From the NCBI GenBank assembly GCA_963816185.1, contig CAWFJJ010000030.1, positions 480,001-544,000 of the forward strand: a DNA stretch of 64,000 bases. Direction: 5' to 3'. Source of the DNA: Thermoanaerobaculia bacterium (lineage in GTDB: Bacteria; Acidobacteriota; Thermoanaerobaculia; UBA5066). Numbering within the stretch: position 1 is the stretch's first letter; each line of letters begins with the position of its first letter. The notes under the pieces are model-generated. The model was not told the origin of the DNA, did no database searches, and saw only the letters and a program-made list of their open reading frames with translations. This document shows positions 312 to 60,213 of the stretch, piece after piece. Made by a program: the position numbers and the translations under genes.

Positions 312-371
312 GCCGCTTCCACGCGCGTCGAGTTACGCTTCGGCACTCTGCTCGGGAGATTTTCTTAGAAG

Positions 372-959
372 GTGAAAGAAGCGGTGGCGCGCCCCAGGCC
401 CGTCTTCGTGGCGATCGGAATGGGCGCGAACATCGGCTCCCCCCGCCGCGCCTTTCGCCACGCCGCACAAACTCTCTTTCCCTTTCTAAGAAATCCGAAA
501 ATTTCCCCCATCTACCGCACATCCCCGGTCGGAGGCCCATCCGATCAGCCCGATTACCTCAATGCCGTCATCGCCGGAACGACCTCGCTTCCTGCGAACG
601 CCCTTCTTACCCTTCTCAGAAAATCCGAAATCTCCGCGGGTCGAAAGCCAGGCGGGCGGAGGAACGCGCCGCGCTCCCTGGACCTCGATCTCCTCCTCTA
701 CGGAAACGAGCGGATCGCGACGCAGCGCCTGACGGTGCCGCATCCGCGCATGACGAGCCGATTGTTCGTCCTCGTCCCGCTCGCGGACGTCGCGCCGCGG
801 CGCGTGGTGCCGGGAACCGGAAAGACGGTCGTGCGCCTTCTCGCCGAGACCCGGCGGCGCTCCACGGAGAGAGTCAGGCGGGCGCGGAAAGCGGGCGTGG
901 CGCGGCCGGGCGCTCGACGAGCCGCGCGAGCGCGAACAGGAGAAGGGTCATCCGGTTGA
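372..959 (+). CDS. folK: 2-amino-4-hydroxy-6-hydroxymethyldihydropteridine pyrophosphokinase
   Basis: IGMGANIG, DYLNAV, PRSLDLDLLLYG, VPHPRM..RLFVLVPL motifs; start uncertain (GTG lies inside a motif copy). Confidence 0.93.
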   Translation: MKEAVARPRPVFVAIGMGANIGSPRRAFRHAAQTLFPFLRNPKISPIYRTSPVGGPSDQPDYLNAVIAGTTSLPANALLTLLRKSEISAGRKPGGRRNAPRSLDLDLLLYGNERIATQRLTVPHPRMTSRLFVLVPLADVAPRRVVPGTGKTVVRLLAETRRRSTERVRRARKAGVARPGARRAARARTGEGSSG

Positions 960-2142
960 AGAAGCGGACGGCCAGCGCGGGCTTCTCCACGTCGCCCGCG
1001 AGCACCGAGGTGACGGCCGCCCGTAGCGCGTCGAGCGGGGCCTTCTCGCAGAACAGGCGCGTGAAGACCGGATCGTAGTAGCCGTACACGAACGGGCGAA
1101 ATCGATTCACCATTCGGCACGTGGTCTTCGCGTACTCCGAGAAGTCCGCCGCGTCCACCCGGCCCTTTTTTGCGAGCGCCGCGTCGACGACTCTCGCCGC
1201 GCGGATGCCCGCCGACATCCCGAGGAACACGCCGGTGGAAAAGACCGGGTCGAGGAACGTCGCCGCGTCACCCACGAGCGCCCATCCGTTGCCCGCGTAC
1301 CGCTCCGACGTGAAGGAATAGTCCGAGACCGCCGAGACTCCGGTGATTCTTCGCGCCGACGCAAGGTACTCGCGCATCTTCGCGGACCTTCCGAGGATTT
1401 CGTCGAGCCGTTCCTCGTGCGTCTTTCCAGAAAGCGTCTCGAGGACCTTGGGGTCGAAGACGGCACCCACGGATGCCGAGCCGTCCGAGAAGGGAATCAC
1501 CCAGTACCAGATGTCCGCCACGAACGGCAGCAGGATGTCGCCGGCGCGCTCGCCTTCGCCGCGAAAGGCGCCGTCGAAGTGCGCGTACAGGGCGGCCTTC
1601 CGGAGATTCGAGTCCGGGCGCCTCAACTTGAGGCGAGAGGCGAGAAGGGCCGCCTGTCCCGTCGCGTCGAGGATCACCTTCGCGCGGATGTCCTCGGGCC
1701 CGCCGGGAGACGAAAGGTGGACCCCCACGGCGCGTTCGCCTTGGAAGATCACCCCCTCGGCCTTCAAGCCGCGGCGAACCTGTGCTCCCGACTTCCGCGC
1801 ATGGTCGGCGAGAAGGCCGTCGAAGTCCCTTCGCTTCACGTGAAAAGCAGACGGGTGCTCGGCGTTCCAAGCCTCGCGGAAGATCACCTGGCGCGTGCCG
1901 CCCGTCGTCTCGTTCGTGAAGAGGGCGCCGTATTTCGGCTGAAACCCGGCGGCCCGGATCCTGGGAAGGACCCCCAGCTCTTCGAAGAGGGGCATGTTCC
2001 ATGGGAGAAGCGACTCCCCGATCTTGAACCGGGGCTCGGGATCGCGGTCGACCAGGAGCACCGACCGTCCGGCCCGCGCGAGAGCCGTCGCCGCGGCGCA
2101 GCCGGAAGGTCCGGCCCCGAGGACGAGGGCGTCGACCGTCAT
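874..2142 (-). CDS. FAD-dependent oxidoreductase, flavin-dependent halogenase-like
   Basis: GAGPSG Rossmann motif, FKIGESLLP, GFQPKYGA, WYWVIP, GDAATFLDPVFSTG; ATG at 2142 overlaps the cysE stop (ATGA). Confidence 0.85.
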   Translation of the reverse strand: MTVDALVLGAGPSGCAAATALARAGRSVLLVDRDPEPRFKIGESLLPWNMPLFEELGVLPRIRAAGFQPKYGALFTNETTGGTRQVIFREAWNAEHPSAFHVKRRDFDGLLADHARKSGAQVRRGLKAEGVIFQGERAVGVHLSSPGGPEDIRAKVILDATGQAALLASRLKLRRPDSNLRKAALYAHFDGAFRGEGERAGDILLPFVADIWYWVIPFSDGSASVGAVFDPKVLETLSGKTHEERLDEILGRSAKMREYLASARRITGVSAVSDYSFTSERYAGNGWALVGDAATFLDPVFSTGVFLGMSAGIRAARVVDAALAKKGRVDAADFSEYAKTTCRMVNRFRPFVYGYYDPVFTRLFCEKAPLDALRAAVTSVLAGDVEKPALAVRFFNRMTLLLFALARLVERPAAPRPLSAPA

Positions 2143-3056
2143 CTCGAAGAGCGGACGGAGGCTGGAAAAACGGCGCGCGTCTCGATCCGGAGCTGGTCGT
2201 TCGGAAGCGTCACGCGCGTGCCCGGCGGCACGGAGGACGTCAGCCACACGCTGCCGCCGATGACGCAGCCTTTCCCGATCACCGTCTCGCCTCCGAGGAT
2301 CGTCGCGCCCGCGTAGATGACGACGTCGTCCATGACGGTCGGATGGCGCTTCGTGCCCCGGATGAGCTCGCCGCGCTCGTTCTTCGGAAACGAGAGTGCG
2401 CCGAGCGTCACGCCCTGGTAGAGCTTCACGCGGTCGCCGATGTCCGTGGTCTCGCCGATGACGGTCCCGGTCCCGTGGTCGATGAAGAACGAGCGGCCGA
2501 TGCGCGCTCCGGGGTGAATGTCGACGCCGGTCTCGAGGTGGGCGAACTCGGTCATGATGCGCGGGATCAGCGGCACGCCGAGATCGTAGAGCGCGTGGGC
2601 GAGACGATAGGTGAAGACGGCCTTCACCCCTGGATACGCGAGCACGATCTCGTCGAAGCCGGTCGCCGCGGGGTCGCCGTCGAAGGCGGCCCGCACGTCC
2701 TCGGCGAGGAGGTCGGCGATTCCGGGCAGGGTCTCGAAGAAGCGCGTCGTGAGATCGTCCGCGCTCGAGCTCGGGCCTCCTTCGAGAGGAAGCGCCTTCT
2801 CGATCTCTTTCACGAGCCTCAGGTGAATGTGGAAGAGAACGTCCCCGAGGTGGTCGTGCAGGTTCGCGCGATAGAGCACCGCGTCTCCGTAAAAACCGGG
2901 GTAAATGACCTCCTGCAGCAGCCGAAGGATCTCGATGATCTCCTTCTTCTGGGGCCTCGGCGCCGCGTCGATGGCGGACAGCAAGGGGCGGTTCTCGGCC
3001 TCCGTCACGATGCGGTCGATCGCCGTGCGCAGGCGGTTGTCGCTCACCGGACTCAT
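2139..3056 (-). CDS. cysE: Serine O-acetyltransferase (EpsC/CysE type)
   Basis: GDPAA, DIHPGARIG..FFIDHGTGTVIGET, YQGVTLG, KRHPT hexapeptide region. Confidence 0.93.
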   Translation of the reverse strand: MSPVSDNRLRTAIDRIVTEAENRPLLSAIDAAPRPQKKEIIEILRLLQEVIYPGFYGDAVLYRANLHDHLGDVLFHIHLRLVKEIEKALPLEGGPSSSADDLTTRFFETLPGIADLLAEDVRAAFDGDPAATGFDEIVLAYPGVKAVFTYRLAHALYDLGVPLIPRIMTEFAHLETGVDIHPGARIGRSFFIDHGTGTVIGETTDIGDRVKLYQGVTLGALSFPKNERGELIRGTKRHPTVMDDVVIYAGATILGGETVIGKGCVIGGSVWLTSSVPPGTRVTLPNDQLRIETRAVFPASVRSSR

Positions 3057-3060
3057 TCTC

Positions 3061-3924
3061 TCACCGGCCGGCCCAGTTCTTCAGAAGCTGCGCCGATTCC
3101 TCCTGGGTCTTTCGGTTCTCCACGAGATAGTCCGGATCCGGGGTCTCGGTGAGGATCTTCTCGAGCATCGCGCGCGCCTCGGCCCGGTGGGCGGGCTCGT
3201 AGTCCCACATCGCTTCGGCGAGAAACTGGCGGCCCACGAGGTTTCGCGGCCCGACCTCCACGGCGAGCCGGAGATTCTTCAGCGCGAGAGCGCGCGACGC
3301 CCAGCCCGTGAAGAACGGGATGGCCGGCGTCTGGTGATGAAGCCGGCCCAGAACGCGGTATCCGCCGCCTCCGTCGTACCGTGGGTCGAGCAGGATGACG
3401 GCCTGAGCGTAATCGCGAATCTTCGAGGCAGCCCCCTGTCTCACCGCCGCGGTCTTCCCGAAGGCGAGAGCCCATTTGCCCCAGTCGACCGCGGCCCAGA
3501 GGAACGAGGGGCAGGCTGCGGCGTTTCCCTTGACGTAGGGGACGAGCTCAACGGGGGTCGCACTCGTCAGGTCCCGGCGCGCCTCTCGGCCGGCCTCTCC
3601 CCTCAGGATGATGAGGGTCTGCTCGGCGACCGTCCGCCCTTCGTCGAAGATCGTCCGCTTTTGGGCGACGTCGTTCGTCGTGTGCTCGCCCTTGAAATAC
3701 AGGGCGCGCATGAGGCGCCAACGTACCTCGAGCGAATCCGGTTTTGCGGCGAGAGCGGCACGACAGGCGTCGATCACGAGATCGATCGGGCCGGAAAGAG
3801 CGTGGCCGCCCGTGGAGCCCTCGGCGCGAAGCGCCCAGAGCCGGTCCATGTCGGCGGGCTTCGGAGTCGGCTCGGAAGCACCGAGGAGACCCGGGAGGAC
3901 GAACAGCCAGGCAAGGGAGCGCAT
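3061..3924 (-). CDS. Exported TPR-like helical protein (TatT-component-like)
   Basis: Signal-like N-terminus MRSLAWLFVLPGLLGA; helical repeats such as EVRWRLMRALYFKG and YDGGGGYRVLGRLHHQTP; GGAGG upstream. Confidence 0.6.
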   Translation of the reverse strand: MRSLAWLFVLPGLLGASEPTPKPADMDRLWALRAEGSTGGHALSGPIDLVIDACRAALAAKPDSLEVRWRLMRALYFKGEHTTNDVAQKRTIFDEGRTVAEQTLIILRGEAGREARRDLTSATPVELVPYVKGNAAACPSFLWAAVDWGKWALAFGKTAAVRQGAASKIRDYAQAVILLDPRYDGGGGYRVLGRLHHQTPAIPFFTGWASRALALKNLRLAVEVGPRNLVGRQFLAEAMWDYEPAHRAEARAMLEKILTETPDPDYLVENRKTQEESAQLLKNWAGR

Positions 3925-3937
3925 GGCCTCCACTATA

Positions 3938-3954
3938 CTGGCGCGCCTCTTGCG
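3938..3954 (+). promoter_or_regulatory. sigma54-type -24/-12 promoter for the DUF3467 gene
   Basis: CTGGCGCGCCTCTTGC matches TGGCRCG-N4-TTGC with GG and GC 12 nt apart. Confidence 0.55.
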
Positions 3955-3987
3955 AGGAGGCGCACGCACGAAACACGAGGTGCCGCC

Positions 3988-4311
3988 GTGGCTGACCAGC
4001 CTTCCAAGCCCGAATCCCAGCCTCCGTCCCTCCAGTTCTCGATCGACGACTCGGTTGCGAACGGCATCTACGTAAATTTCGCGAACATCATTCACAACCC
4101 CGCGGAGTTCGTCCTCGACTTCGGGCGCATCGTGCCCGGCCGCAGCGACGTCCGCGTCCTGTCGCGCATCCTCACGACCCCGGTCCACGCCAAGCAGCTC
4201 CTCAACGCCCTTGCCCAGAACGTAACTCTCTACGAAAAGACCTTCGGCACCATCCGCACCGACTTCGAGGCGCCGCGATCAGGCGGCACGGAGTCCTTTC
4301 GGCCCAACTGA
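3988..4311 (+). CDS. DUF3467 domain protein
   Basis: GIYVNFANIIHNPAEFVLDFG...SRILTTPVHAKQLLNALAQNVTLYEKTFG is typical of DUF3467; GAGG before GTG 3988. Confidence 0.85.
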   Translation: MADQPSKPESQPPSLQFSIDDSVANGIYVNFANIIHNPAEFVLDFGRIVPGRSDVRVLSRILTTPVHAKQLLNALAQNVTLYEKTFGTIRTDFEAPRSGGTESFRPN

Positions 4312-4333
4312 CCCAGCAAGGAAATCACGAGCG

Positions 4334-4864
4334 ATGAATCCACGAGCTCTCTCCGCCTGTCTCCTCGGCCTCACCTTTTCCTTCTCGATCGGCGGCCCCG
4401 CGTCGGCGGGCCCGGCCACACAAGAGAAGTCCGGGGCGTCCGCGCCGACGCCCGCCCCTCCCGAGGCCCCCATCTTCGATTCGGAGGCGATCGGAGAAAA
4501 GCAGATCGCCGAGTACCAGAAGGTGTGCCTGGACTCGGGCCGCCGGCTCCTGATCGTCTTCGGCACGAACGACTGCGCCGCGTGCCGCGCGTTCAACCAC
4601 GCGCTCCACAAGGACAAGTTCTTCGAGCCTTTCATCAACCAGTTCGTCCCCGTCTTCGTCGACGTCTCGAGCGGAACGAACGCCCAGCTTCTCGCCCAGT
4701 ACAACATCAATACGCACGCCGAGCAGCCCGGCATCGTGATCCTGATGCCCGACGGGCGCATCATCGAGGTCCTCGCACAAGGCGAGATGGCCGCTCTGAC
4801 TCGAAAAGGAGATGCCGCGGTGCAGGAGTTCTTCCTGGCACGATTCCTCAAGACCGAGAAGTAG
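4334..4864 (+). CDS. Exported thioredoxin-fold protein
   Basis: Signal peptide, FGTNDCAAC (CxxC), FVPVFVDV. Confidence 0.75.
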   Translation: MNPRALSACLLGLTFSFSIGGPASAGPATQEKSGASAPTPAPPEAPIFDSEAIGEKQIAEYQKVCLDSGRRLLIVFGTNDCAACRAFNHALHKDKFFEPFINQFVPVFVDVSSGTNAQLLAQYNINTHAEQPGIVILMPDGRIIEVLAQGEMAALTRKGDAAVQEFFLARFLKTEK

Positions 4865-4900
4865 TCCCGCGGCGCCCCTTCCTCTGGCAAAATCGAGACG

Positions 4901-5512
4901 GTGGCACTCTCCAGGAGCGGAGTCCAGCCCGCGCCAGACCCGGGTGATCTGCTGCTCGTCGCGGCGGGGGACGACGCGGCCCTCACGCGTCTCGTCACGA
5001 GATGGCGCCAGCCGGTCTACGCTCTTTTCGAGCGTACACGAGAACCTTCCGCGGCGGCCGAGGCCACGATCCTGACCTTCGAACGCCTGGTCCTGACGGC
5101 GGAGGACTATGCGCCGGGGTCGCCCTTCCATGCGTTTCTGTGGGGCCTCGTCGCGAAAGTCCTGCAGGACGCGAAAATCGGCGACGTTCTCGAGATTCCG
5201 GCGCTGAAGCTCGCGGACTCCCCTTCCGCGCGGACGGCCCTCGTGCGCTCGGCGATCGCCGCGCTGCCGGCTGGCGAGCGGAGCGCGTTCCTGCTCACAC
5301 GCGTCGCCCGGCTTTCCGTCGCCGCCGCCGCGGAGGCGCTCGGCGTCTCCGAAACGGAAGTACGGCGACGCCTCGTACGCGCCCTCGAGAGTCTTCGGGT
5401 TTTTCTTCGTCCTCTTCTCGAGACCTCGGGGTCTTCGCCGACACGGACCGGCCCCGACGACGCGGATCGAGATGCGACCGGTTCCGACAAGCCGAAGATG
5501 GCAGCGTCGTGA
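4901..5512 (+). CDS. ECF-type RNA polymerase sigma factor (divergent region 2)
   Basis: GDDAALTRLVTRW (region 2 start); LPAGERSAFLL...AAAEALGVSETEVRRRLVRA (region 4 HTH). Confidence 0.7.
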   Translation: MALSRSGVQPAPDPGDLLLVAAGDDAALTRLVTRWRQPVYALFERTREPSAAAEATILTFERLVLTAEDYAPGSPFHAFLWGLVAKVLQDAKIGDVLEIPALKLADSPSARTALVRSAIAALPAGERSAFLLTRVARLSVAAAAEALGVSETEVRRRLVRALESLRVFLRPLLETSGSSPTRTGPDDADRDATGSDKPKMAAS

Positions 5513-6486
5513 CCTGCGACGAGCTGCGCGAACGAATCGTGGACCCGGCGTCGGCCGCGCAGGGCGGGCACGCGCCTGTCGTCGCCCATCTCGAGGAGTG
5601 CTCGGCCTGCCGGTCCGCGGCCCGCGACTACGCCGCGCTCGATCGGCTCATTCGCCCCGCGACGCCCTCAGAACCGCCGTCCGATCTCGAAGTGCGCCTG
5701 AGGCAGAGGCTGACGGTAAGACCCGGGTCGGCGAGGCGAAGCGCCTGGCTTCTCGCGGGCGCCGTGGCCGTGCTCGCGCTCGTGGCGTTCGCGGCTCCGC
5801 GCCTTCTGCGCGGGCGAAGCGCACCCTCGACCGCGGTCGGGGCGGTTTCAGCCCTGCCGGCCTCCGCGGTGCCGGCCGGCGCGCGTTCCGAGGTTCGTGA
5901 GGCTCCTCCGCCGGACATCGTCGCCGTCCACTCGACGCCGATCTCGTTCCAGGAGCCTCCGCTGACGGCGCAGGAAAAGTCCGAGGCGAGGGAGCTCCAC
6001 GAGTTCGATTTTCTCAGCTCGTTCCAGACGCTCGCGCGCCTCGACGCGTTCTTTCCCGAGCCCGTCGGACCGCGCGCGCCGGTTCCGATTCCGGCAGGCG
6101 GGTTCTCGTCGCGCCCTCCCGACTCGCCGGACGCGCTCACGGGTCGCTTCCTGGACTGGCAGCGCACTCCGAAGAAAGAGCGCGAGCGGCTCTTCGCGCT
6201 CGAACAGGCGTTCCGGAACCGCCCCGACGAGGAACGCGCGCTTCTCGAGGACCGATGGACGCTCGTGCGCGATTTCACCGAAGACCAGCGAGCGGGGCTC
6301 CGTCGCCTCGCGAGCCGCCTGGACGACCTCGACGCGCGCGCCCAAGAGCGCCTCGCGGCCGACATCCGGCTCATCGGCCGGCTTCCCAGGGAGGAGCGCG
6401 CGGCGCGCTGGCGGGCGCTCTCGTTTGCGAAGCCGCTCACCGGGCAGGAGCTCGCGAGCGCCGAGAGGCTTCTCCTCTCGCGATGA
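5509..6486 (+). CDS. Putative anti-sigma factor: zf-HC2, TM helix, DUF3106-like C-terminus
   Basis: GTGA overlap with sigma stop; HLEECSAC motif; TM WLLAGAVAVLALVAFA; helical W..L...ER repeats. Confidence 0.7.
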   Translation: MTCDELRERIVDPASAAQGGHAPVVAHLEECSACRSAARDYAALDRLIRPATPSEPPSDLEVRLRQRLTVRPGSARRSAWLLAGAVAVLALVAFAAPRLLRGRSAPSTAVGAVSALPASAVPAGARSEVREAPPPDIVAVHSTPISFQEPPLTAQEKSEARELHEFDFLSSFQTLARLDAFFPEPVGPRAPVPIPAGGFSSRPPDSPDALTGRFLDWQRTPKKERERLFALEQAFRNRPDEERALLEDRWTLVRDFTEDQRAGLRRLASRLDDLDARAQERLAADIRLIGRLPREERAARWRALSFAKPLTGQELASAERLLLSR

Positions 6487-6508
6487 CGGTCCCGTAGACT
6501 CGCGCGCG

Positions 6509-9401: not shown

Positions 9402-9462
9402 ACGCAATTCGCAATTCTAGCATATAGGTTGACCAATTTCGGCTCGTGAGACGCCGGCTGTT

Positions 9463-10797: not shown

Positions 10798-10817
10798 CGA
10801 TTCACCCCACTCAGCGC

Positions 10818-10846: not shown

Positions 10847-10876
10847 GTCCAGCGCTAAAAAAAGGGTCTTGTCGCC

Positions 10877-14914: not shown

Positions 14915-15124
14915 GTATCCGAACCGCCGGATATGAGAAGAATCTCCGGCGCATTCCCTCAAGGTGTCGATTAATCAACAACAACCAGGGGTCGTGGCTC
15001 TTGCCTTGCCCCGGCAACTCCCCCGCCTAAATCACCTTCTAAGAAATACTTCCTTGCTCTCTGAACAAAAGTCCACATCCACTGGCACGGCACGTGAAGA
15101 GCGCGGGCGGGAGATCTGGCCGCC

Positions 15125-18092: not shown

Positions 18093-21308
<3,216 letters not shown>

Positions 21309-22317: not shown

Positions 22318-23246
22318 TCGAGACCCGGGGCCTCACCCGGAAGTTCGAGAGAGTCGAGGCCCTGAAGGGAATCGACCTGTCGATCGACAAGGGCGAGCTC
22401 TTCGCGCTCATCGGACCCGACGGCGCCGGCAAGACGACGTTGTTCCGAATAATCGCCGGCCTTCTCGCACCAACCGCGGGCATCGTGCGCATGGCGGAAA
22501 ACATCGCGTTTGGCTTCGTCCCGCAGCGCTTCAGCCTCTACGAAGACCTTTCGATCGACGAGAACCTCTCGCTCAGGGCGCGGCTCTACGACATCCCCGA
22601 CGACGTGGCGGCGAATCGCGCGAAGGACCTCCTGGCACGCGTCGGCCTCGACCGCTTTGGGCGTCGTCTCGCGGGGGCGCTCTCGGGGGGCATGAAGCAG
22701 AAGCTCGCGCTCGTCTCGGCGCTGATGACGCAGCCGCCGCTCCTTCTTCTCGACGAGCCGACGACAGGCGTCGATCCGGTCTCGCGCCGCGAGTTCTGGC
22801 TGCTCCTCAACCGGCTGCATCACGAGGGCCTGACGATCGTCGTCTCGACGCCGTACATGGACGAGGCGGAGTACGCCACTCATCTCGCGTTCCTCGACCG
22901 GGGACGCCTGTCCGCTTTCGGCACACGCGGAGAGATCCTCGCCTCGTATCCGCGGCCGCTCGTCGAGGTTCGGTCGTCGAAGAGGTTCGAGGTCAAGAAG
23001 AGACTCGAAAGCGTGGAAGAGGTCGACGACGTCTCGCTTTTCGGGACGAGGCTGCACGTTCGCGGAAGAGAAAAGAAGGAGAAGGCGGGGGATTTCTTAG
23101 AAGGTAGATTGCGCGATGCGCTGGCGGGGCTCGTCCCGGCGGACGACATCCGGCGGGTGCAACCCAGCCTCGAAGACGCATTCGTGCTATTCAGCGAGGC
23201 TGAAGAGCCGGAGGAAAAAGGCGCGGAAAAGGGAGAGGCCGCATGA
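22314..23246 (+). CDS. ABC transporter ATP-binding protein (YbhF-like, first)
   Basis: GPDGAGKTT, LSGGMKQK, LLLDEPTTGVDP; GTGA overlap with the MFP stop. Confidence 0.92.
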   Translation: MIETRGLTRKFERVEALKGIDLSIDKGELFALIGPDGAGKTTLFRIIAGLLAPTAGIVRMAENIAFGFVPQRFSLYEDLSIDENLSLRARLYDIPDDVAANRAKDLLARVGLDRFGRRLAGALSGGMKQKLALVSALMTQPPLLLLDEPTTGVDPVSRREFWLLLNRLHHEGLTIVVSTPYMDEAEYATHLAFLDRGRLSAFGTRGEILASYPRPLVEVRSSKRFEVKKRLESVEEVDDVSLFGTRLHVRGREKKEKAGDFLEGRLRDALAGLVPADDIRRVQPSLEDAFVLFSEAEEPEEKGAEKGEAA

Positions 23247-24322
23247 GCGACCAGCCCCCAGGCCGCGCGCCGGCCTCCCCCCCGCCGCCTTCTAAGAAGT
23301 CTTCCTCTTCGCCCTCGTCTTCCTCCTCTCCGAATTCCTCTTCCCCTTCTAAGAGATCTCTCTCTTCCTCTTCTTCGTCCTCCTTCCTGAGCTGTGAGAA
23401 CCTGACGCGGAAGTTCGGCACGTTCGTCGCCGTCGACCACGTCTCGTTCGACGTTCCCCGCGGCAAGGTCTTCGGCTTTCTCGGCCCGAACGGCTCGGGG
23501 AAGTCCACGACGATCCGGATGTTGACGGGGCTCCTCGCACCCTCCGACGGGAGCGCGCACATGCAGCCGGATGGCCGGACGCTCGACGTCGCGCGCGACA
23601 CCGACGCGTGGAAGACGCATCTCGGGTACATGAGCCAGAAGTTCTCTCTCTATCTCGACCTGACGGTGGAGGAGAACCTGTCGTTCTTCGGATCCATTTA
23701 CGGCCTTCCAAAAGAGCGCCTTGCCGGCCGCATCAAGGAGCTGTCCGGGCGCCTGCACTTCACGAAGCTCCTGCCGGCGCTCACGGAAGGGCTCTCGACG
23801 GGCTATCGCCAGCGCGTCGCGCTCGCGGCCGCGCTCCTCCACGAGCCGGAGCTCCTGTTCCTGGACGAGCCGACCGGCGGGGTCGATCCGAGAGGACGGC
23901 GCCTCTTCTGGGATCTCATCTACGAGCTCGCGGCCGACAAGGGAATGACCGTCCTCGTCACCACGCATTACATGGACGAGGCCGAGCAATGCGACCGGCT
24001 CGCGTTCATCCTCGACGGAGCGCTCATCGCCGAAGGGGCGCCGCCCGACCTCAAGCGCGACCTCGCCGACCGCATCGTGCAGGTCACGCCACCCTCCGAC
24101 CCGTTCCTGGCGCTCGAGGAGGTCCAGCGGGATTCCGCGCTCGAGGACGCGTATCTCTTCGGGGCACGGCTTCGCGCGGTCGCGAAGCCCGGCACGGTCG
24201 AGGCCGCCCGGAGCCTGCTCGCCCGCTTCGCCCCGCCGGAGCCCGCCGAGCCCTCGCTCGAGGACGTGTTCGTCTCGCTCGCGCGCAAGCAGAAGAGGTC
24301 ACGGGAGGAGGTCGCGGCATGA
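23243..24322 (+). CDS. ABC transporter ATP-binding protein (second) with Ser-rich N-terminal extension
   Basis: GPNGSGKST, LFLDEPTGGVDP, TTHYMDEAE. Confidence 0.92.
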   Translation: MSDQPPGRAPASPPPPSKKSSSSPSSSSSPNSSSPSKRSLSSSSSSSFLSCENLTRKFGTFVAVDHVSFDVPRGKVFGFLGPNGSGKSTTIRMLTGLLAPSDGSAHMQPDGRTLDVARDTDAWKTHLGYMSQKFSLYLDLTVEENLSFFGSIYGLPKERLAGRIKELSGRLHFTKLLPALTEGLSTGYRQRVALAAALLHEPELLFLDEPTGGVDPRGRRLFWDLIYELAADKGMTVLVTTHYMDEAEQCDRLAFILDGALIAEGAPPDLKRDLADRIVQVTPPSDPFLALEEVQRDSALEDAYLFGARLRAVAKPGTVEAARSLLARFAPPEPAEPSLEDVFVSLARKQKRSREEVAA

Positions 24323-27984: not shown

Positions 27985-30444
27985 TCAGAGCGCGACCCGG
28001 CGGAGCCGGAGCGCATTCGAGATCACGGACACCGAGCTCATCGTCATCGCGGCGCTCGCGATCACGGGCGAAAGGAGGAGCCCGAAGAACGGGTAGAGCA
28101 CGCCGGCCGCGATCGGGATGCCGATCACGTTGTACACGAACGCGAACGCGAGGTTCTGCCGGATATTTCTCATCGTCGCCTTCGAGAGGCGGCGTGCGCG
28201 CACGAGGCCCGAGAGGTCTCCTTTGAGAAGCGTCACATCCGCGCTCTCGATCGCGATATCGGTCCCGGTTCCCATCGCGATGCCCACGTCTGCAGCGGCG
28301 AGCGCCGGCGCGTCGTTCACACCGTCTCCCGCCATCGCGACGATCCGGCCCTCTCTTTTGAGGCGCGCCACGGCCTCGGCCTTGGCCGTCGGCAGCACTC
28401 CCGCGACGATCTCGTCGATCCCGAGCTCCATACCCACATTTTCGGCGGTCGCCTTCGCGTCGCCCGTGAGCATCACGACGCGAATTCCCAGGCCGTGCAT
28501 CTCGGCGATGGCGGCCGCTGCGGGGCCCTTGATCGGATCGGCCGCCGAGAGAAAGCCCGCCGGCTTGCCGTCCACGGCTACGAAGAGGACCGTGTGACCT
28601 TTCGCGCGCTCGGCGTCCGCTTCGGCGAGGAGGTCGTTCGGAAAGGGAGAAGAAGAGGAAGAGGAAGAGGAAGAGGAAAAGGAAGATTTTTCTTCGAATA
28701 GAGGAAGGGAACCGAGCACGACGGATCGGCCGTCCACCTTGCCCGCGATGCCCTTTCCGGGGATTGAAGAGAATTCCTTCGAAGGTGAAAGAGTCAGGCC
28801 CGCCGCCTCGGCGGCGGCGGCGACCGCAGCCGCCAAAGGGTGCTCGCTCGCGCGCTCGAGCGAGGCGGCCAGGCGCAGCAATTCCTTTTCATCGAACGCG
28901 CCGAAGGCGCGAATCTTCTCGACCTTCGGCTTCCCCTCCGTCAGCGTGCCCGTCTTGTCTACGACGAGCGTGTCCACTTTCTCGAGCTTCTCGAGCGCCT
29001 CGGCGTTCTTCACGAGGATGCCGGCCTGCGCGCCCCGCCCCGTGCCGACCATGATCGACATCGGCGTCGCGAGGCCGAGCGCACAGGGACACGCGATGAT
29101 GAGGACGGCGACGGCGTTCACGAGCGCGTGCGCGAGGCGCGGCTCCGGGCCGAACACCGCCCAGGCGGCGAACGTCAGGACCGAGACCAGAACGACCGCG
29201 GGCACGAACCACGACGCGACCACGTCCGCGAGGCGCTGGATGGGCGCGCGGCTGCGCTGGGCTTGGCCGACCAGGCGCACGATCTGGGCAAGGAGCGTGT
29301 CTCGTCCCACGCGCTCGGCCTTTACCACGATGCCGCCGACGCTGTTGAGCGTGCCGCCCGTCACCGTGCTCCCCCTCGTCTTCTCCACCGGCACCGGCTC
29401 GCCCGTCAGCATCGATTCGTCCACCGCGCTCGCGCCTTCGACGACGAGCCCGTCCACAGGCACTCTCTCGCCCGGCCTCACGCGCAGCCGGTCTCCGACG
29501 CGCACGTCCTCGAGTGGGACGTCCGCTTCGACGCCCGAGGCCTCGATCCGGCGCGCCGTCTTCGGCGCGAGGCCCAGGAGCGCCCGGATCGCCCCCGAGG
29601 TTCGCGCGCGCGCCCTCAGCTCGAGCACCTGCCCGAGGAGGACGAGAGTCGTGATGCCCGCCGCGGCCTCGAAGTAGACGTCGTGTACCGCTCCTGCGCC
29701 AGTGGTGCCGTGGCTCGGGAGATGGTCTGCAAAGTTTCTTTGAAGGCTCAGAAAGACTTCCGCGGTCCTGTAAAGGCTGTACAAGAAAGCCGCGCCCGTT
29801 CCGAGCGCGATGAGGGTGAACATGTTGAGATTCCGCGTTCTCAGCGAGGCCCAGCCTCTCTCGAAGAACGGCCATCCGCACCACAGGACGACCGGCGTCG
29901 CGAGGAGCAGCTGGACGATGAGGTTGAGGCGCGGTGGGAACGAGTCCCTCAGCGCGGGCACCAGCATCGCGCCCATCTCGAAGAGAAACAGCGGAAGCGT
30001 CAGACCCAGGCTCACCCAGAACCGCCGGGACATGTCCCGAAGCTCCGGGTTCTCCTCCTCCGCGGCTGTCGGCATCATCGGCTCGAGCGCCATGCCGCAG
30101 ATCGGGCAGGCTCCGGGCTTGTCCCTGATGATCTCGGGGTCCATGGGGCAGGTCCAGAGAGAGGGACCGGGGGACTTCTTAGAAGGTGAAGAGGGGATGG
30201 GCGCGGCAGGCTGCGACGGCGAGGCTGCTGCGGTGGCGGAAGGGCCTCCAGCGGTGTCCGTCTTTCTATTCGAAGAAAATCTTTCTGGCTCTTTCTTGAA
30301 TTTCTCCGCGCAACCCTTCGCGCAGAAATACCAGGTCTTCCCCCCGTACTCGACCTTCGCCGCGGCGCGCGCGGGATCCACGGTCATTCCGCAGACGGGA
30401 TCGATCTCGCCTGCGGGCGGCGGGGAGTGAACCGGCAGCTGCAA
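27985..30444 (-). CDS. copA: Cu(I)-translocating P1B-type ATPase with YHS and metal-binding domains
   Basis: DPVCGM/FCAKGC (YHS), [45 protein letters not shown]. Confidence 0.93.
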
Positions 30445-49667: not shown

Positions 49668-49764
49668 TCCTTCTTCCCTCACGTTCGGCGGCACCCCCCG
49701 GCCCGCATTCCGCGGTCTCGGGGTCTTTTGCCCGCCGGGCAGGGCCACGCGAAAGGAATTGCCC

Positions 49765-52013
<2,249 letters not shown>

Positions 52014-52017
<4 letters not shown>

Positions 52018-53726
52018 TTTTCTTTCTTCCGCACGCGCCGCTCCGGCGGCGCGACCCCTTCGGGGGCGATGCCCGTGTTCGACCTGTCGCCGGAGTCGAG
52101 CCAGTAGCGGGCGGAAGCCACGCCCGCGTCACGATCGTGATCGTCGCCGCCCTCGGCGAGATAACGCTCGATCTCCGCCGCCCCTGCCTCCGGCGAGACT
52201 TTCGCCTCGACGAGCGTCGCGTAGACGAGTGCGTCGGCGAAGCGGTGCCTGCCGGCGGGGATCGTGGACGGCAGGAGCGGCACGAGAGACAGCGCACCCG
52301 CCGTCACGACCAAAAGGCCCGCGGCCCGAAATCTGCGATCCTGCATTTCTTTGAAGATGAAGAGAAGGAAGAAGCCCGCGCCGAGGGCCAGCGGGCCGGC
52401 CATCGCGGCGCGGTAGCGGGATGTGGTCTGGACCAGCAAACAGGCCGCGAGCGGCACGAGAATCGCGACGAGCGCCAGCAACCCCTCTTCCTTTCTCAGC
52501 ACGCGGCGCGACAGCGCCGCGCAAAGGCCGACTCCCCCTATTCCGAGCAGACAGGAAAAGACCGGGAGAATTCTCAGAATCGTCAATCGGTCCCGGAAAA
52601 AATAGAAACTCGCGTTGTCCGGAATCTCGAACGCATTGAAGAACGTCGCGAGCTTCTTCAGGAAGAGCTTCGGCAGCTCGAGCGGCGCGCCTCTGTAGCT
52701 CTCGAGGACGAGACGCGCGGTGCGCAACGTGGAGCCCCGTGCCTTCTCGAGCATCTCGTCCATCCCCGGCGGCGACATCGTCGTCGCGTTCGCGCCGCGC
52801 GCGTTGCCCCAGACGAGGCCGATGGCCTGCCGCGTGTCGAAGGTCAACGGCGGTACGCCGGCGGAGATGTTGCGGGCGGCGAGAACGGCGAGCGGGATCG
52901 CGAGGCCCAGGGTGCCGAGGAGAAGAACGCCGCCGCGCTTCGCGCCGCCCGGGGATTTCTTAGAAGGTGAATAAAGAGAATAAAGGCAATAGAGAGACGC
53001 GAGCGCCAAGGGTGCGATCGTCTGCTTCAGCAGGATCGCCAGGCCGCCGAGGAGGCCGAGAAGGAAAGGAGAAGACCTTTTCCGCGCGATCAGCGGCCAG
53101 GCCAGCAGCAGCGTCGAAAGGTGCGCGACGGGTCCGTCGCGCAGCAGGAAACCGTCGTGGAAAACGAGCGGGCCGTAGAGCCCGTAAAAGACCCCCCCCA
53201 GTGTGGCCGCGACCGCGGCGGCGGTGCTGCGCTCCTGCGCCTCGGGCGAAGCTCCGCCGGCGCCGTCCCCCTCCCCTCTTCCCCTTCTAAGAAATTCTTC
53301 TCTCCTCCTCCCTAACTCGAAGACCGCCAGGGCGAGTACCGCGCTTGCGAGACACGCGAGAAGGAGCTGCAGGACTCTCGCCGGCCAGACGGGCGAACCG
53401 AAGGCGAGGCGGAGGACCGCGAGGCCGTACGGATAGAGCGGACCCGAAAAGTACGCGTTCTTCTGATACCAGCCTTCCCAGTCCTCCGGACTCCCGTAAG
53501 CCTCCTGCCACGCGAAGTAGGAACGCCACGCGGGCACGTCGCGCCAGTTGCCCGCGGCGAGGTGTGCAGACCAGTCGACATATCCCCATTCGTCCGTCTG
53601 TGTCCAGAGATGCCACAGCGAAAGCGGCGTTCTGGAGAGCGACACGAGATATGCCCCCCTCACGACGAAGACCGCGAGAAAGACCGTGACGAAGACGGCG
53701 CGACCGCGTCGGGCTCGTGAAGACAC
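52014..53726 (-). CDS. Polytopic membrane glycosyltransferase (GT-C, ArnT/PMT-like)
   Basis: TDEWGY after TM1, PLYPY, multiple TMs, RYRA. Confidence 0.65.
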
Positions 53727-53870
53727 GCAGGGATTCTAGGAGACTCGTTCGCGGTGCTCGTTCTCACGCCGCCCTCGGCACGATCCCATCCGCGGCCGGC
53801 GGTTCTGGCGCTATCTGGTAAATTCCCCGCGTTTGCGCCGGGGCGGAGAGAGACTCAAGAACAACACGAG

Positions 53871-54523
53871 ATGTCACAGATCTTCAATCGAAGTACGAAC
53901 GCCATCTCGCGCCTCTCGATCTGGGGCGCGGCGTTCATCCTCGGTGGCGTCGGATGGGCGGCGTCAATCCTGAACCGCTCCGCCTACAACACGAACCAGG
54001 GCGTCACGGTGAAGCAGCCCGTGCCTTTCGGCCACGAGCACCACGTGGCCGGCCTCGGCATCGACTGCCGCTACTGCCATTCCTTCGTCGAGAAGAGCGC
54101 CTCGGCCGGCATCCCGCCGACGGCGACCTGCATGAACTGCCACAAGATCATCTGGAACGACAGCCCGATGCTCGAGCCCGTCCGCGAGAGCTTCCGGACC
54201 GGAAAGCCGCTGAACTGGAGGAAGGTCTACGACCTGCCCGACTTCGTGTACTTCGACCACAGCATCCACGTGGCGAAGGGAGTCGGGTGCGTCACGTGCC
54301 ACGGCCGCATCGACAAGATGCACCTCACCGCACAGTTCCCGTCTCTCCAGATGGAGTGGTGCATCGCCTGCCACCGCAACCCGGAGAAATCCCTGCGTCC
54401 GAAGGAGAAGATCTTCGACCTGACCTGGACCGCGGCCGACCAGGAGACGCTCGGACGAGAGCTCGCGAAGAAGAACCACCTCCGATCGACGATCGCGCTC
54501 ACGAACTGCAGCACGTGCCATCG

Positions 54524-54527
<4 letters not shown>
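53871..54527 (+). CDS. actA: Alternative complex III pentaheme cytochrome c
   Basis: Five CxxCH motifs (CRYCH, CMNCH, CVTCH, CIACH, CSTCH); QPVPF.HEHH. Confidence 0.92.
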
Positions 54528-57430
<2,903 letters not shown>

Positions 57431-57435
57431 GGCGA

Positions 57436-58814
<1,379 letters not shown>

Positions 58815-58818
<4 letters not shown>

Positions 58819-59432
58819 GGACCTTTCTCGCGAGGCTCTTCGCCCGCCACGTCAGGCCTGAATTCGGCAAGCCGGGCCCGCGCCAGGAAGGCGGGGACCT
58901 GCCGCCGCACCTTTACGGCGTCATCGCCGAGTTCGCGAAGCCCGAGTCGCTCGTTCACGCGGTTCACGCGGTCCGCCAGGAGGGGTACCAGGTGATCGAG
59001 GCCTATACGCCCTATCCGATCGAGGAGCTGCACGACGCCATCGGCCACGGCCCTTCGCGCGTGCCGCTCCTCGCCCTGATCGGCGGGATTCTGGGCGGCC
59101 TCTTCGGATTCTTCCTCCAATACTGGACCTCCGCGGTCGATTTCCCGCTGAACATCGGCGGGCGCCCGTACAACAGCTGGGTCTCCTTCATCCCGATCAC
59201 GTTCGAGTGCACGATCCTCTTCGCGGGCATCGCGACCGTGCTCGGCATGCTCGTGCTGAACGGCCTGCCGATGCCGTACCACCCGGTCTTCTCCGTGCCG
59301 CGCTTCCAGCTCGCTTCGCGCGACCGGTACTTCCTGATGATCCTCGCGCGCGACCCTCGCTTCCGTGCCGGCGACACGTTCCGCTTCATGGAGACGCTCG
59401 GCGCGAGCCACGTCTCGGACGTGGAGGACTGA
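58815..59432 (+). CDS. actD: ACIII subunit D (DUF3341)
   Basis: AYTPYPIE, LNIGGRP, FIPITFE. Confidence 0.9.
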
Positions 59433-60154
59433 TGCGCCGGGATCTCTTCCAGGCCGGCGTGCCCTTTCTCGTGCTCCTCGTCGGCGGCTGCCGGAACGAC
59501 ATGCATCACCAGGCCAAGATCAAGCCGTTCCGCGAAAGCACGTTCTTTGCGGACGGCACCTCGGCCCGCCCATTGCCGGAGGGCACCGTCGCACGCGGCT
59601 TTCTCCGCGCCGACGCCGCGCTCTGGCGCGGCCAGGGGCCGGACGGCAAGTTCGTCGAGCAGATCCCCGTGCCCCTCACACGCGAGCTCCTTCTGCGCGG
59701 CCAGGAGCGCTTCAACATCTTTTGCTCGCCGTGCCACGGCCGGACGGGCGAGGGTCAGGGCATGATCGTGCAGCGCGGCTTCAAGCGCCCGAATTCCTTC
59801 CACGTCGACCGCCTGCGAGCCGAGCGCGCGGGCTACTTCTTCGACGTCATCACGAACGGCTTCGGCCAGATGTCGAGCTACGCCGTGCAGGTGACGCCCG
59901 AGGACCGCTGGGCGATCGTCGCGTGGATCCGAACCCTCCAGGCCTCCCAGCACATGCCCGGGAGATTTCTTAGAAAGGGGACCGAGAAGAATTGGACCGT
60001 GTTCCCGAATGAGCGATGTCAAGGGTCAAAGACCGCAGCGCGGCGCGCAAAGCGCGCGCTCTCGGGGGCTTACTTCGGGAGCCCCCGGACCCCCGTGTCG
60101 CCGCATATCAGAAGAACTCTCTTCCCCGGGTGCACATCCAGTTCCCGCAGCTGA
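59432..60154 (+). CDS. actE: ACIII subunit E, monoheme cytochrome c lipoprotein; C-terminus atypical
   Basis: Lipobox LVGGC, PEGTVARG, CSPCH, DRWAIVAW; the tail after about 59960 is not ActE-like. Confidence 0.88.
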   Translation: MRRDLFQAGVPFLVLLVGGCRNDMHHQAKIKPFRESTFFADGTSARPLPEGTVARGFLRADAALWRGQGPDGKFVEQIPVPLTRELLLRGQERFNIFCSPCHGRTGEGQGMIVQRGFKRPNSFHVDRLRAERAGYFFDVITNGFGQMSSYAVQVTPEDRWAIVAWIRTLQASQHMPGRFLRKGTEKNWTVFPNERCQGSKTAARRAKRALSGAYFGSPRTPVSPHIRRTLFPGCTSSSRS

Positions 60155-60160
60155 CATTGC
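60013..60160. repeat. About 150-bp structured, REP/MITE-like element between actE and actF
   Basis: Terminal GCGATGTCA / TGACATTGC near-inverted ends; internal hairpins GCGC-GCAAA-GCGC and CGGGGGCT-N9-AGCCCCCG. Confidence 0.5.
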
Positions 60161-60213
60161 CTCGCCCTCTTAACTTCTAAGAAATCTTCCTCTTCGTCTT
60201 CTTCCGAAACAAA

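Follow-up and report, generated by a model that had tools for sequence, protein, structure and literature searches.

An AT-rich DNA motif arranged in facing pairs and kept at the nucleotide level in two sister genera of Thermoanaerobaculia

The window analysed here, a stretch of 64,000 nucleotides from a Thermoanaerobaculia genome, raises the question why GC-rich DNA should carry the same AT-rich word over and over again, even within genes for conserved enzymes. This word, TTCTTAGAA, occurs exactly 11 times in the window, while dinucleotide shuffling, repeated 100 times, produced 0.02 copies on average and never more than one, and a 14-mer form with at most two mismatches is matched 12 times against 0.07 expected. 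A sequence-only reading of the window had listed these 11 exact cores and four one-mismatch cores, all of which were recovered (Table 1), whereas its GC figure of 69% has to be lowered to a measured 67%. In the whole genome of 5.09 Mb, 337 exact copies are found where an order-3 Markov model predicts 5.6, a 60-fold excess corresponding to 66 exact cores per Mb. The signal is thus genome-wide and, as the genomes of relatives show, lineage-wide, and an artefact of a single contig is ruled out. Sites are over-dispersed along the genome (variance/mean of 1.9 per 50 kb). Small, probably accessory contigs (347 kb in total) hold two copies against about 23 expected.

The motif had initially been described as a lone 14-mer, but it is actually one arm of a two-arm unit. 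Its near-palindromic 9-mer forms the centre of an asymmetric arm of about 30 nt, composed, according to the logo of all 337 copies, of a purine-rich tract of about 20 nt, R-W-T, the core, GG, (T/G)GAA and a G-rich stretch; hence, the asymmetric flanks and purine tract first seen in the window hold throughout the genome. About 500 arms are present in the 5.1-Mb genome, mostly in facing pairs with their purine tracts outward and with a preferred spacing of 74-76 nt. Exact neighbours less than 600 nt apart are in '+-' order in 63 cases, compared to 4 in '-+', 11 in '++' and 5 in '--' order; 16 of the 63 '+-' neighbours are spaced 74-76 nt apart, the minimum spacing among exact-core pairs is 46 nt, and within single predicted coding sequences '+-' again exceeds '-+' (54 vs 7). 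Pairing is the rule at DNA level, and eight of the 11 exact copies in the window make up four facing pairs, an arrangement absent from the sequence-only reading. The spacers between paired arms are unique, GC-rich and unstructured (folding z of -0.04), and tandem and nested arrays of arms (++-, +--, ++--) exist as well. Relative to genes, no strand bias is apparent (87 same, 79 opposite). A strand or orientation bias along contigs was also looked for and none was seen, which speaks against a site polarised between ori and ter.

Table 1 Motif arms and a nested repeat in the 64-kb window
Feature	Position	Strand	Context
'+' arm core	362..370	+	Just upstream of folK start; left arm of facing pair with 484; present in a subset of the genus
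'-' arm core	484..492	-	folK HPPK domain, about residues 32-35; one clade only; outgroup FolK proteins align without indels
'-' arm core, variant TTCTCAGAA	613..621	-	Inside folK; orthologous site across the genus
Arm core, variant CTCTTAGAA	11288..11296	-	mnmA PRC-barrel domain; site in 12/12 aligned rows, exact core in 4
Arm core	15037..15045	-	Intergenic
Arm core and purine tract	19588..19596	+	RND permease, around residue 498; codes for a charged stretch
'+' arm core	23094..23102	+	Near end of first ABC ATPase gene; left arm of pair with 23290
'-' arm core	23290..23298	-	Ser/Pro-rich N-terminal extension of second ABC ATPase ORF; ABC_tran starts only at residue 65
Second '-' arm core (variant)	23347..23355	-	Tandem with 23290
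Arm core	30176..30184	+	copA-like ATPase, YHS-HMBD linker; degenerate facing arm near 30255-30275
'+' arm core	52957..52965	+	In 570-aa minus-strand ORF 52014-53726; pairs with 53285; 8/9 positions in 3/3 relatives that could be anchored
'-' arm core	53285..53293	-	Partner of 52957; kept in 1/5 relatives, lost by indel in 4/5
Arm core, variant TGCTTAGAA	57414..57422	+	actB/actC junction; of 5 relatives, identical in 4, 7/9 in 1
'+' arm core	59967..59975	+	Forms ActE C-terminal tail; site in 11/11 aligned rows, exact core in 4/11
Different, truly multi-copy repeat	59994..60106	.	Nested inside 59967/60175 unit
'-' arm core	60175..60183	-	30 nt upstream of next gene start; present in 7/11 rows, deleted in 4

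Regarding the position of the arms, the earlier description as scattered through genes covers about half of the copies (166-167 in predicted coding sequences), while 171 of the 337 lie between genes, in the roughly 13% of the genome that consists of spacers, a split that derives from a crude, purpose-made gene finder. When codons were shuffled synonymously with every protein kept, as the sequence-only reading had proposed, 20 shuffles yielded 4.2 +/- 2.2 copies (maximum 9) compared to the 167 real ones, a 40-fold enrichment, and shuffles of codon order within coding sequences yielded 1.4; the lack of enrichment named there as refuting was not observed. All four stop-free frames on both strands are used (47, 40, 22 and 57 copies), and so are codons that are rare in this genome, with TTA and CTA accounting for 0.3 and 0.7% of Leu and AGA for 3.1% of Arg codons; 47 of the 522 TTA codons fall in an in-frame TTC-TTA-GAA. 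This places the signal at the nucleotide and not at the protein level, in agreement with the earlier interpretation. The regions between co-directional genes have the highest arm density (0.29-0.33 per kb vs 0.19-0.22). Arms also lie close to gene ends: 28 of 35 single '+' arms are located at most 65 nt from the upstream stop codon and 29 of 44 single '-' arms at most 120 nt from the downstream start codon. The gene names assigned earlier are backed by Pfam for folK, mnmA, the RND permease, the two ABC ATPases and the copA-like ATPase, while a Pfam search with the 'GT-C' ORF gave nothing at E<=1e-5, and for actB and actE the names have the support of domain content only (4Fe-4S plus molybdopterin-binding domains in one case, a cytochrome c domain in the other).

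Alignments of conserved genes indicate how such arms may have come about. The folK gene carries three arms. In comparisons with FolK from four motif-free genera, none of the three calls for an indel in the alignment, and TTCNNNGAA is entirely absent from folK there (this set includes G053 and G057 of the sister genus g18, with folK likewise devoid of the arm). At the 613 site, 24 of 28 aligned rows are within one mismatch of TTCTAAGAA and 13 are exact, and its third codon positions vary less than those outside it (uniformity of 0.86 vs 0.68). Arm positions in folK turn over between two clades, while the '+ ... -' arrangement is always kept at the locus. In mnmA, variation of the site within the genus is by substitution only, and in a yciH/SUI1-like gene, genome G000 gained a '+' arm by substitutions beside a conserved '-' arm. 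Judging from these alignments, arms in conserved genes arise by point substitution, without indels and against strong codon bias. Some gene-borne arms occupy orthologous places across one or two genera, the arm site in alr being common to both.

The motif has a sharp phylogenetic boundary. Each of 24 other genomes from the same genus contains a 12-mer version (21-210 copies, compared to 0-3 for a reversed-pattern control), as opposed to none of 16 genomes from two other families. An 11-mer version occurs in all 26 sampled genomes of the genus with 37-267 copies and in all eight genomes of g18 with 1-31 copies, two of the latter holding a single one; arms in g18 look identical in form to those of the source genus. 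Elsewhere in the family (seven other genera, 26 genomes), five genomes hold a single 11-mer (2/17 of g10, 2/2 of g11 and 1/2 of g17) and the other 21 none. Hence, the motif belongs to two sister genera, uncultured and from soil, and is essentially missing elsewhere in family and order. Within the genus, copy number varies about tenfold, a range more readily reconciled with drive or a selfish element than with an essential function, the first two not being told apart by it.

Whether the units move, or once moved, is the obvious question for an inverted repeat of this kind. Whole units do appear and vanish between species as blocks of about 100-130 nt at gene junctions: block gain or loss was found in 40 of 112 resolved site-by-genome comparisons, while the identical core was kept in only 24 of 112 (five close relatives). 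Intergenic units are often lost by deletion. One of them (C1:278197) is present in both G000 and G003, across the deepest split of the 6-taxon tree, but three relatives lack it, each with an empty site of its own, which points to independent deletions. At two filled/empty junctions no target duplication was found, boundaries being fuzzy and at least one case being a deletion. Among 127 units compared, no two of canonical size share a spacer, whereas a second, different repeat nested in six of the 127 exists in copies of 84-100% identity and thus serves as positive control for spacer sharing; a copying MITE was rejected on this basis. For a G000-only insert of 118 nt, a full-length paralogue was sought and none was found, and a search for a longer element with the same arms returned, in G000, 13 '+-' pairs 400-5000 nt apart that enclose ordinary, unrelated genes. 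No match to the arms was obtained in 72,556 plasmids. The PF01797 profile (Y1_Tnp) had no match in G000 (94.9% complete), and of 29 genomes from the genus, every one with the motif, 4 encode this RAYT transposase; as the core is moreover AT-rich and the logo lacks a GTAG or CGTC tag, a RAYT/REPIN system was rejected. The motif is not being copied as a transposon and is not tied to a RAYT transposase. An old MITE- or REPIN-like element could nevertheless have spread once in the common ancestor of the two genera and now be decaying by deletion, with its arms homogenised by ectopic gene conversion that would also have converted look-alike gene stretches. The inverted arms with their fixed orientation, modal unit length and tandem or nested arrays are as expected from such a past, as are the block indels, the history of C1:278197 and a spacer similarity slightly above that of shuffled sequences (global score of 2.65 vs 0.83, sd of about 3.3). 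We consider it rather improbable, however, as insertion cannot account for 30-nt arms in conserved enzymes of unaltered length, conversion at such short and imperfect homology would itself have to be assumed, and neither a transposase partner nor a longer arm-bearing element, a plasmid match, a target duplication or a paralogue of the insert came to light in the searches above.

Other explanations start from what the arms might do. If they paired in RNA into a long-range stem read by RNase III or another factor, they could set the stability of neighbouring cistrons or couple translation. Whole units fold far better than shuffles (z of -5.4), the missing gene-strand bias would be explained because an inverted repeat reads alike on either strand, and the density peak between co-directional genes, with arms abutting stop and start codons, would suit this function. 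Yet, there is no mark of selection for RNA base pairing: in register, just 36% of pairings between partner flanks are Watson-Crick, flank complementarity between partners is no higher than that with arms of other units (all permutation p>0.27), core variants show no excess of covariation (154 partner vs 158 non-partner), and sense-strand G.U does not exceed A.C (392 vs 415). A selected RNA hairpin was rejected for want of covariation and G.U excess, a known Rfam RNA because covariance models at gathering score had no match in the window plus L169 (84 kb), and '+' arms as ribosome-binding sites because a gene start follows 8 of 336 compared to 5.4% at random places. Since '-+' pairs would fold as well, their scarcity would lack a reason, as would a loop of at least 37 nt, and an RNA-level role seems highly unlikely. 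Least probable of all is a hotspot of the HIP1 or very-short-patch kind, in which a methyltransferase and a repair nuclease acting on the core would bias mismatch repair towards the motif; the near-palindromic core, the in-situ spread in all frames against codon bias and the confinement to one lineage agree with it, but conservation over about 30 asymmetric nucleotides reaches far beyond a methylase site and the paired geometry is left unexplained. Paired sites selected without any drive, for an abundant nucleoid-associated or chromosome-organising protein of the two genera whose binding is useful while exact places are free to shift, are rather improbable too, on a par with the old mobile element. 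Here, the 9-bp core would suit a dimer, the facing pairs with their minimum distance and mode of about 76 bp a DNA-bridging or -wrapping protein, and the shifting folK arms with retained '+ ... -' order as well as the absent strand bias fit in. A range from 37-267 copies in the genus down to a single 11-mer in two g18 genomes would, however, be odd for a core chromosome function, identical cores are retained in few of the resolved comparisons, the flanks beside the core are not symmetric, and no candidate protein was found.

Our preferred reading, held tentatively and at somewhat less than even odds, is that of a paired site in double-stranded DNA maintained either by weak selection or by a drive similar to the one behind DNA uptake signals. 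Each arm would be recognised by a protein or machine that is specific to the lineage and reads two sites facing each other, and abundance would be kept up by recombination-coupled molecular drive, alleles with the better motif having an advantage in transmission; weak selection for such binding would leave the same picture. The more specific version, in which the arms act as a two-part 'self' signal in DNA uptake or recombination, read as two facing sites about seven helical turns apart, is possible but doubtful. Genes for ComEC, DprA and an HHH_3 (ComEA-like) protein are present, so uptake is possible; in control genomes, such genes are also common in bacteria not known to be transformable. 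Competence genes are necessary but not sufficient for motif-biased uptake, and the search for a protein reading the arms identified no candidate. Under the drive reading, a two-site reader has to be assumed in addition to explain why arms face each other, keep a minimum of 46 nt and have their mode at 76 nt, and known uptake signals are not reported to require a second copy at a set distance. Gain and loss of blocks looks like the behaviour of an element and counts against drive. So do the over-dispersion of sites, the presence of three arms in folK and the density, which is low for an uptake signal, signals in Haemophilus and Neisseria numbering roughly 700-1000 per Mb. Still, the candidates put forward in the sequence-only reading, drive of the uptake-signal or HIP1 kind and a site for an abundant DNA-binding protein, remain leading.

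No description of the motif was found in the literature, just as the earlier reading had recognised no described element, but several known systems come close. Uptake sequences of Pasteurellaceae (USS) and Neisseriaceae (DUS) share with it a short core within a longer asymmetric consensus, an even distribution over the two strands, occurrence in related species but not in neighbouring taxa, depletion in probably accessory DNA, gene copies arising by point substitution at tolerant residues (here in folK, mnmA and the yciH-like gene) and many intergenic copies in inverted pairs. In contrast to USS and DUS, the density here is about tenfold lower, pairs lie 74-76 nt apart around an unstructured spacer instead of forming tight terminator stems, one arm order is almost obligatory, whole units come and go as indels, and the lineage is uncultured. 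HIP1 of cyanobacteria, a perfect GC-rich palindrome of 8 bp, lacks long asymmetric flanks and paired units, and its mechanism is, to our knowledge, still open after decades. It is likewise a lineage-specific palindromic motif kept at nucleotide level in coding and non-coding DNA and in all frames, while the core described here is AT-rich in a genome of 67% GC and is set in arms of about 30 nt. REPINs are described as inverted doublets with preferred spacing, a less conserved middle and hundreds of copies (PMC3337134), and REP tags as GTAG or CGTC (PMC3733652). The doublets with preferred spacing, the less conserved middle and the hundreds of copies have their counterpart here, but a cognate RAYT is missing, the core is no GC-rich tagged hairpin and half of the copies reside in predicted genes. 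Correia/NEMIS and ERIC elements resemble the present units in size (about 100-150 nt), inverted ends, transcribed spacers at gene junctions and presence or absence between relatives. They keep a recognisable internal sequence and a TA target duplication, whereas spacers here are unique and no duplication was seen. Rickettsia palindromic elements (RPEs), too, are palindromic units placed in frame in linkers and tails of protein genes; comparable placements here are the copA-like YHS-HMBD linker, the ActE tail, the N-terminus of an ABC ATPase and a loop of the RND permease. RPEs are insertions that add residues, while the folK arms replace residues without length change and the mnmA site varies within the genus by substitution.

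Iterated genome motifs are few (USS/DUS, HIP1, REP, Chi), and each has opened up a piece of DNA biology. Some DNA-level force keeps the present motif in place, and the case joins three traits, namely a spread within genes like that of uptake signals, despite a codon used at 0.3%, a strict geometry of two sites and a phylogenetic boundary drawn cleanly around two genera with copy numbers from 1 to 267, which in combination make the question testable. Comparison of copy number with gene content over about 35 genomes could reveal the reader protein, and strain-level data could separate drive from selection. If the two-part uptake signal proved true, no molecular drive of the uptake type would have preceded it outside the Proteobacteria, nor any with paired geometry; residues of housekeeping enzymes would have been remodelled by it, and linkers, tails and gene spacers would owe it their existence. 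In annotation, the units obscure where genes begin and stop, equip proteins with Ser/Pro-rich or charged tails and lead ORF callers astray in this lineage.

The 11 copies of the core 9-mer TTCTTAGAA that the sequence-only reading had located in the window, counting either strand, were all found in place, whereas dinucleotide shuffles (100 runs) averaged 0.02 copies and never exceeded 1; a 14-mer form with up to two mismatches matched 12 times against 0.07 expected. Throughout the source genome (5,088,052 bases in 30 contigs, 67.2% GC), 337 exact cores stand against 5.6 by an order-3 Markov estimate, and TTCTTAGAA is the top over-represented 9-mer once a homopolymer artefact is set aside: poly-A/T 9-mers head the k-mer table because of a run on contig C10, which looks like an assembly artefact. 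The codon-preserving shuffle, named beforehand as the refuting test, left the excess intact. Twenty shuffles that exchanged synonymous codons inside single genes, and so left every protein intact, gave 4.2 ± 2.2 cores, at most 9, compared with 167 in the real predicted genes, while shuffling their codon order gave 1.4. The codons used by the motif are indeed rare in this genome, TTA and CTA making up 0.3% and 0.7% of leucine and AGA 3.1% of arginine codons, and in-frame TTC-TTA-GAA holds 47 of the 522 TTA codons in predicted genes. Gene names assigned from sequence stood in part. Pfam supports folK (HPPK) and mnmA, both ABC ATPases, the AcrB-type permease and a P-type ATPase of copA-like type. 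In actB it shows 4Fe-4S and molybdopterin-binding domains and in actE a cytochrome c domain, which confirms domain content only, and the ORF named 'GT-C' has no Pfam match. ActC has its best named relatives in Acidobacteriota MAGs, none above 76% identity. A search of sequencing runs kept as contigs found none with half of the words, RNA runs reaching at most 0.07.

A logo of the 337 copies yields an asymmetric consensus of about 30 nt, the arm, in which a purine-rich tract of about 20 nt is followed by R-W-T, the core, GG (G at +10 in 92%), (T/G)GAA and a G-rich stretch. At 20 bits or more, a weight matrix found 606 sites in the source genome and 62 in the reversed genome; removal of 175 TTCTTCGAA sites as probable coding background left 499. 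The preferred arrangement is a unit of two facing arms with a spacer between them. Among exact-core neighbours less than 600 nt apart, 63 are '+-' pairs with their purine tracts outward, against 4 '-+', 11 '++' and 5 '--' (signs denote arm orientation), and within single predicted coding sequences '+-' outnumbers '-+' by 54 to 7. Spacing is far from uniform, since 16 of the 63 pairs lie at 74-76 nt, six at 151-156 nt and none below 46 nt. Larger clusters are nearly all ++-, +-- or ++--, some being local tandem duplications with a unit of about 78 nt. Spacers are GC-rich, differ in each unit and fold as their shuffles do (mean z -0.04; none of 34 below -2). Facing TTCTTCGAA-type sites at eight loci of the source genome, exactly 93 nt apart and with near-identical flanks, probably stem from a gene or domain family present in several copies rather than from the paired-arm element.

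Coordinates of arms, units and associated features (window positions, or contig of the source genome and position)
Feature	Location	Remark
Facing pair	window 362/484	
Facing pair	window 23094/23290	
Facing pair	window 52957/53285	
Facing pair	window 59967/60175	
Arm	window 30176	decayed partner near 30262
Unit common to two genomes	C1:278197	
Second repeat copies	window 59994-60106; C25:499826-499925; C24:130021-130114; C28:441364-441430; others	
TTCTTCGAA loci, 93 nt	C23:2634, C23:5303; C24:605665, 616380, 620203; C29:240389; C30:311521; C8:329057	
'GT-C' ORF	window 52014-53726 (-)	without Pfam family at E<=1e-5
Long ORF after actE	window 60214-61401 (+)	without Pfam family at E<=1e-5
Homopolymer runs	C10:1146-2240	1028 + 65 bases; 15.6-kb contig of odd composition (tetranucleotide correlation 0.70)
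Small contigs nearly without motif	C2-C4, C6, C9, C12, C13, C15, C16, C18-C20, C22, C23, C26	
Unit near ComEA-like gene	C29:11903-11992	about 300 nt upstream
Arms near ComEC	C28:244848-246298	within 2.6 kb upstream
Tracts read as ORF extensions	window 23243-23440; C24:137011 onward	
16S 3' end and first spacer bases	C1:445545-445575	resembles '-' arm

In conserved genes, arms have arisen in place. Three arm sites lie in folK, of which the one at window position 613 occupies the same place in 28 of 28 rows. Thirteen rows keep the exact core and 24 differ from it by one base at most; its central base, which ends a leucine codon, is A in 16, C in 8 and G in 4. Uniformity at the third positions of folK codons is higher within the arm (0.86, n=10) than outside it (0.68, n=37). 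One clade carries a '-' arm at 484, another instead a '+' arm about 15 codons into the gene. Because FolK of five genomes from four genera (g10, g12, g14 and g18; G053 and G057 included) aligns without gaps over the three sites, and TTCNNNGAA was found in none of these five outgroup genes, the folK arms, including their purine or pyrimidine tracts, must have been made by substitutions that changed tolerant residues. Likewise, the mnmA site is orthologous in all 12 aligned rows, an alignment for which only 11 of 27 loci passed the anchor step, and varies by substitution only (TTA, TTG, TCA, TTT). In a yciH/SUI1-like gene, substitutions created a '+' arm in the source genome alone among five aligned rows, 116 nt from a '-' arm kept in all five (the source genome and four relatives). 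An arm in the alanine racemase gene alr is common to the source genome and one genome of the sister genus g18.

Entire units, too, have been gained or lost in one piece. The left arm, where actE ends, encodes the conserved ActE tail in aligned relatives keeping the frame, the right arm survives in 7 of 11 rows while the other 4 have a deletion there, and in some species ActE runs through the whole unit, its stop overlapping the next start (10 of 29 loci passed the anchor step). The unit on contig C1, shared with the related genome G003 with a spacer about 85% identical, is absent from G007, G011 and G042, where three different empty sites occur at the stop/start junction. In a 2.7-kb tree, G017 and G042 fall on the side of the source genome, G007 and G011 on that of G003, which indicates that this unit is ancestral and was deleted several times. 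Conversely, a 118-nt block with two tandem '+' arms occurs in the source genome only, among six genomes; a search for a full-length paralogue found none, only its arms matching elsewhere. When 31 sites were followed through five relatives (155 comparisons, 43 of them without an anchored orthologue), the 112 resolved comparisons showed the core identical in 24, retaining 7-8 of 9 bases in 32, substituted in 16 and absent with a length change, typically of 90-130 nt, in 40, of which at least two (window 59967 and 60175 versus G011) reflect a nested second repeat and not arm loss.

Gene calls came from a purpose-made, crude finder (4277 genes, 87% coding) that missed folK and read through some units, so that the split of 171 intergenic and 166 coding cores among the 337 is approximate. 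The coding cores are spread over the four stop-free frames, with 47 and 40 in those of the gene strand and 22 and 57 in those of the opposite strand. Core density per kb is 0.29-0.33 in co-directional spacers, 0.22 in convergent and 0.19 in divergent ones, and 0.037 in coding sequence; the small difference among divergent, convergent and tandem spacers speaks against a promoter or terminator link. Co-directional spacers have their arms close to the flanking genes: of 35 lone '+' arms, 28 lie within 65 nt past the upstream stop, and of 44 lone '-' arms, 29 lie within 120 nt ahead of the next start. Arms near a ComEA-like gene and ComEC may be chance, given about 500 arms genome-wide. Orientation showed no trend with contig position or GC skew, hence no ori/ter polarity. 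Per 50 kb there are 3.3 loci on average with a variance of 6.1, an over-dispersed distribution, and 16 small contigs (347 kb in total, GC slightly lower) hold 2 cores against about 23 predicted from the genome average. Contig C29 (467 kb), of normal composition, has 2.4 per 100 kb, a third of the genome-wide mean. Both scarcities could stem from regional history, contamination or accessory DNA.

Samples, not censuses, of the genus, family and order delimit the range. Every one of the 24 further genomes sampled from the genus has the 12-mer TTTCTTAGAAGG, in 21-210 copies (reversed-pattern control 0-3), and none of 16 genomes from two other families of the order has it. An 11-mer form was found in all 26 genomes examined within the genus, at 37-267 copies with G006 the highest, and in 8 of 8 of g18, at 1-31 copies with a single one in G053 and in G059, units from three g18 genomes having the same arms and spacings; in seven other genera of the family it was found as a single copy in 5 of 26 genomes (g10 2/17, g11 2/2, g17 1/2) and not in the other 21. 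Given this near-lack in the rest of family and order, the motif is a real feature of two sister genera.

Such a motif calls for a force acting on the double-stranded DNA sequence. This force would have to be indifferent to gene strand and replication strand, create and keep a pattern of about 30 nt against codon bias, and favour a second arm facing the first from 46 nt or more, ideally about 76 nt. A protein or machine that reads DNA at two sites fits all three demands. DNA uptake signals are the best match to the mode of spread, which involves in-place substitution, clade-wide sharing, depletion in probably accessory DNA, a tenfold copy-number range and high turnover. Uptake genes are present, although many bacteria that are not known to be transformable have them as well. 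A paired recognition site maintained by an uptake-signal-like drive, a kind of drive already raised in the sequence-only reading, is tentatively ranked first, at somewhat less than an even chance. Its weak points are the low density, the paired geometry and the block indels. Nucleoid or chromosome sites under selection, suggested there as well, are rather unlikely; a methylation or repair hotspot is very improbable. An old MITE-like family whose copies are kept alike by gene conversion would agree with block gain and loss and is about as unlikely as the nucleoid sites, folK arms having been made by substitution. An active MITE was rejected, as no canonical-size unit among 127 shares its spacer with another; in the high-copy genomes G006 and G044, with 29 and 32 exact canonical units, spacers are again diverse, which speaks against recent bursts there. 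Global spacer scores are only slightly above shuffled ones (2.65 vs 0.83, sd about 3.3), in a comparison that drew on 16 of the 61 canonical units of G006 and G044. RAYT/REPIN was dismissed because Y1 transposase is absent from the source genome and present in only 4 of 29 genomes of the genus. No longer element with arm ends, as expected of an autonomous IS, was found in the source genome, where three pairs about 1270 nt apart enclose unrelated genes, and a plasmid collection gave no match.

At the RNA level, the whole unit folds well (z -5.4) because its arms are complementary, and one relative's actE unit holds a possible compensatory pair, TTGGAA with TTCCAA, without genome-wide support. 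A selected stem is nevertheless improbable, only slightly less so than the methylation or repair hotspot: partner arms are no more complementary than arms of other units (all permutation p >0.27), non-consensus bases common to partners number 154 against 158 expected, and in 110 units whose direction of transcription is known, the sense strand has no excess of G.U (392) over A.C (415). In 84 kb that included the window, no Rfam family matched at gathering score. A small ORF inside the unit can be argued away, since a spacing of 75 occurs about as often as one of 76 and no frame is thus kept. A start-site role was rejected for want of start-codon enrichment on either side of arms, and a ribosome-binding role on pairing of the '+' arm with the mature 16S tail at -8.4 kcal/mol, random 22-mers giving -7.4.

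In the parts of the full-text literature accessible to searches, the core and 12-15-nt arm forms returned no bacterial description: the 9-mer text matches, among those listed, were eukaryotic or primer strings, longer arm forms gave unrelated matches only, and Acidobacteria combined with REP, MITE or uptake sequences gave general papers only.

The second repeat, about 65-100 nt long, is nested in 6 of the 127 TTCTTAGAA units, the window copy among them, and occupies 50-74 genomic places; it contains the over-represented 9-mer TGTCAAGGG (69 copies) and ends in a GC hairpin. Its copies are 84-100% identical within the source genome, in contrast to the unshared spacers of the canonical-size units, and it occurs in many genomes of the genus; in G007, one copy lies in the spacer upstream of folK. 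Pyrimidine tracts of units translate as Ser/Pro/Leu/Phe-rich N-terminal ORF extensions and purine tracts as Glu/Lys/Arg-rich stretches, which makes start-codon calls beside units unreliable. Finally, the '-' arm is similar to the 3' end of 16S rRNA together with the opening bases of the spacer, sharing TCACC and, after a gap of 4 nt, TTCTAAG, then two mismatches and ATCT. In a post-hoc comparison, 0.2% of shuffles and, among random genomic 36-mers, 1.1% reached this local score; the consensus '+' arm pairs with the 16S tail plus spacer at -21 kcal/mol, and with the mature tail alone like random sequence.
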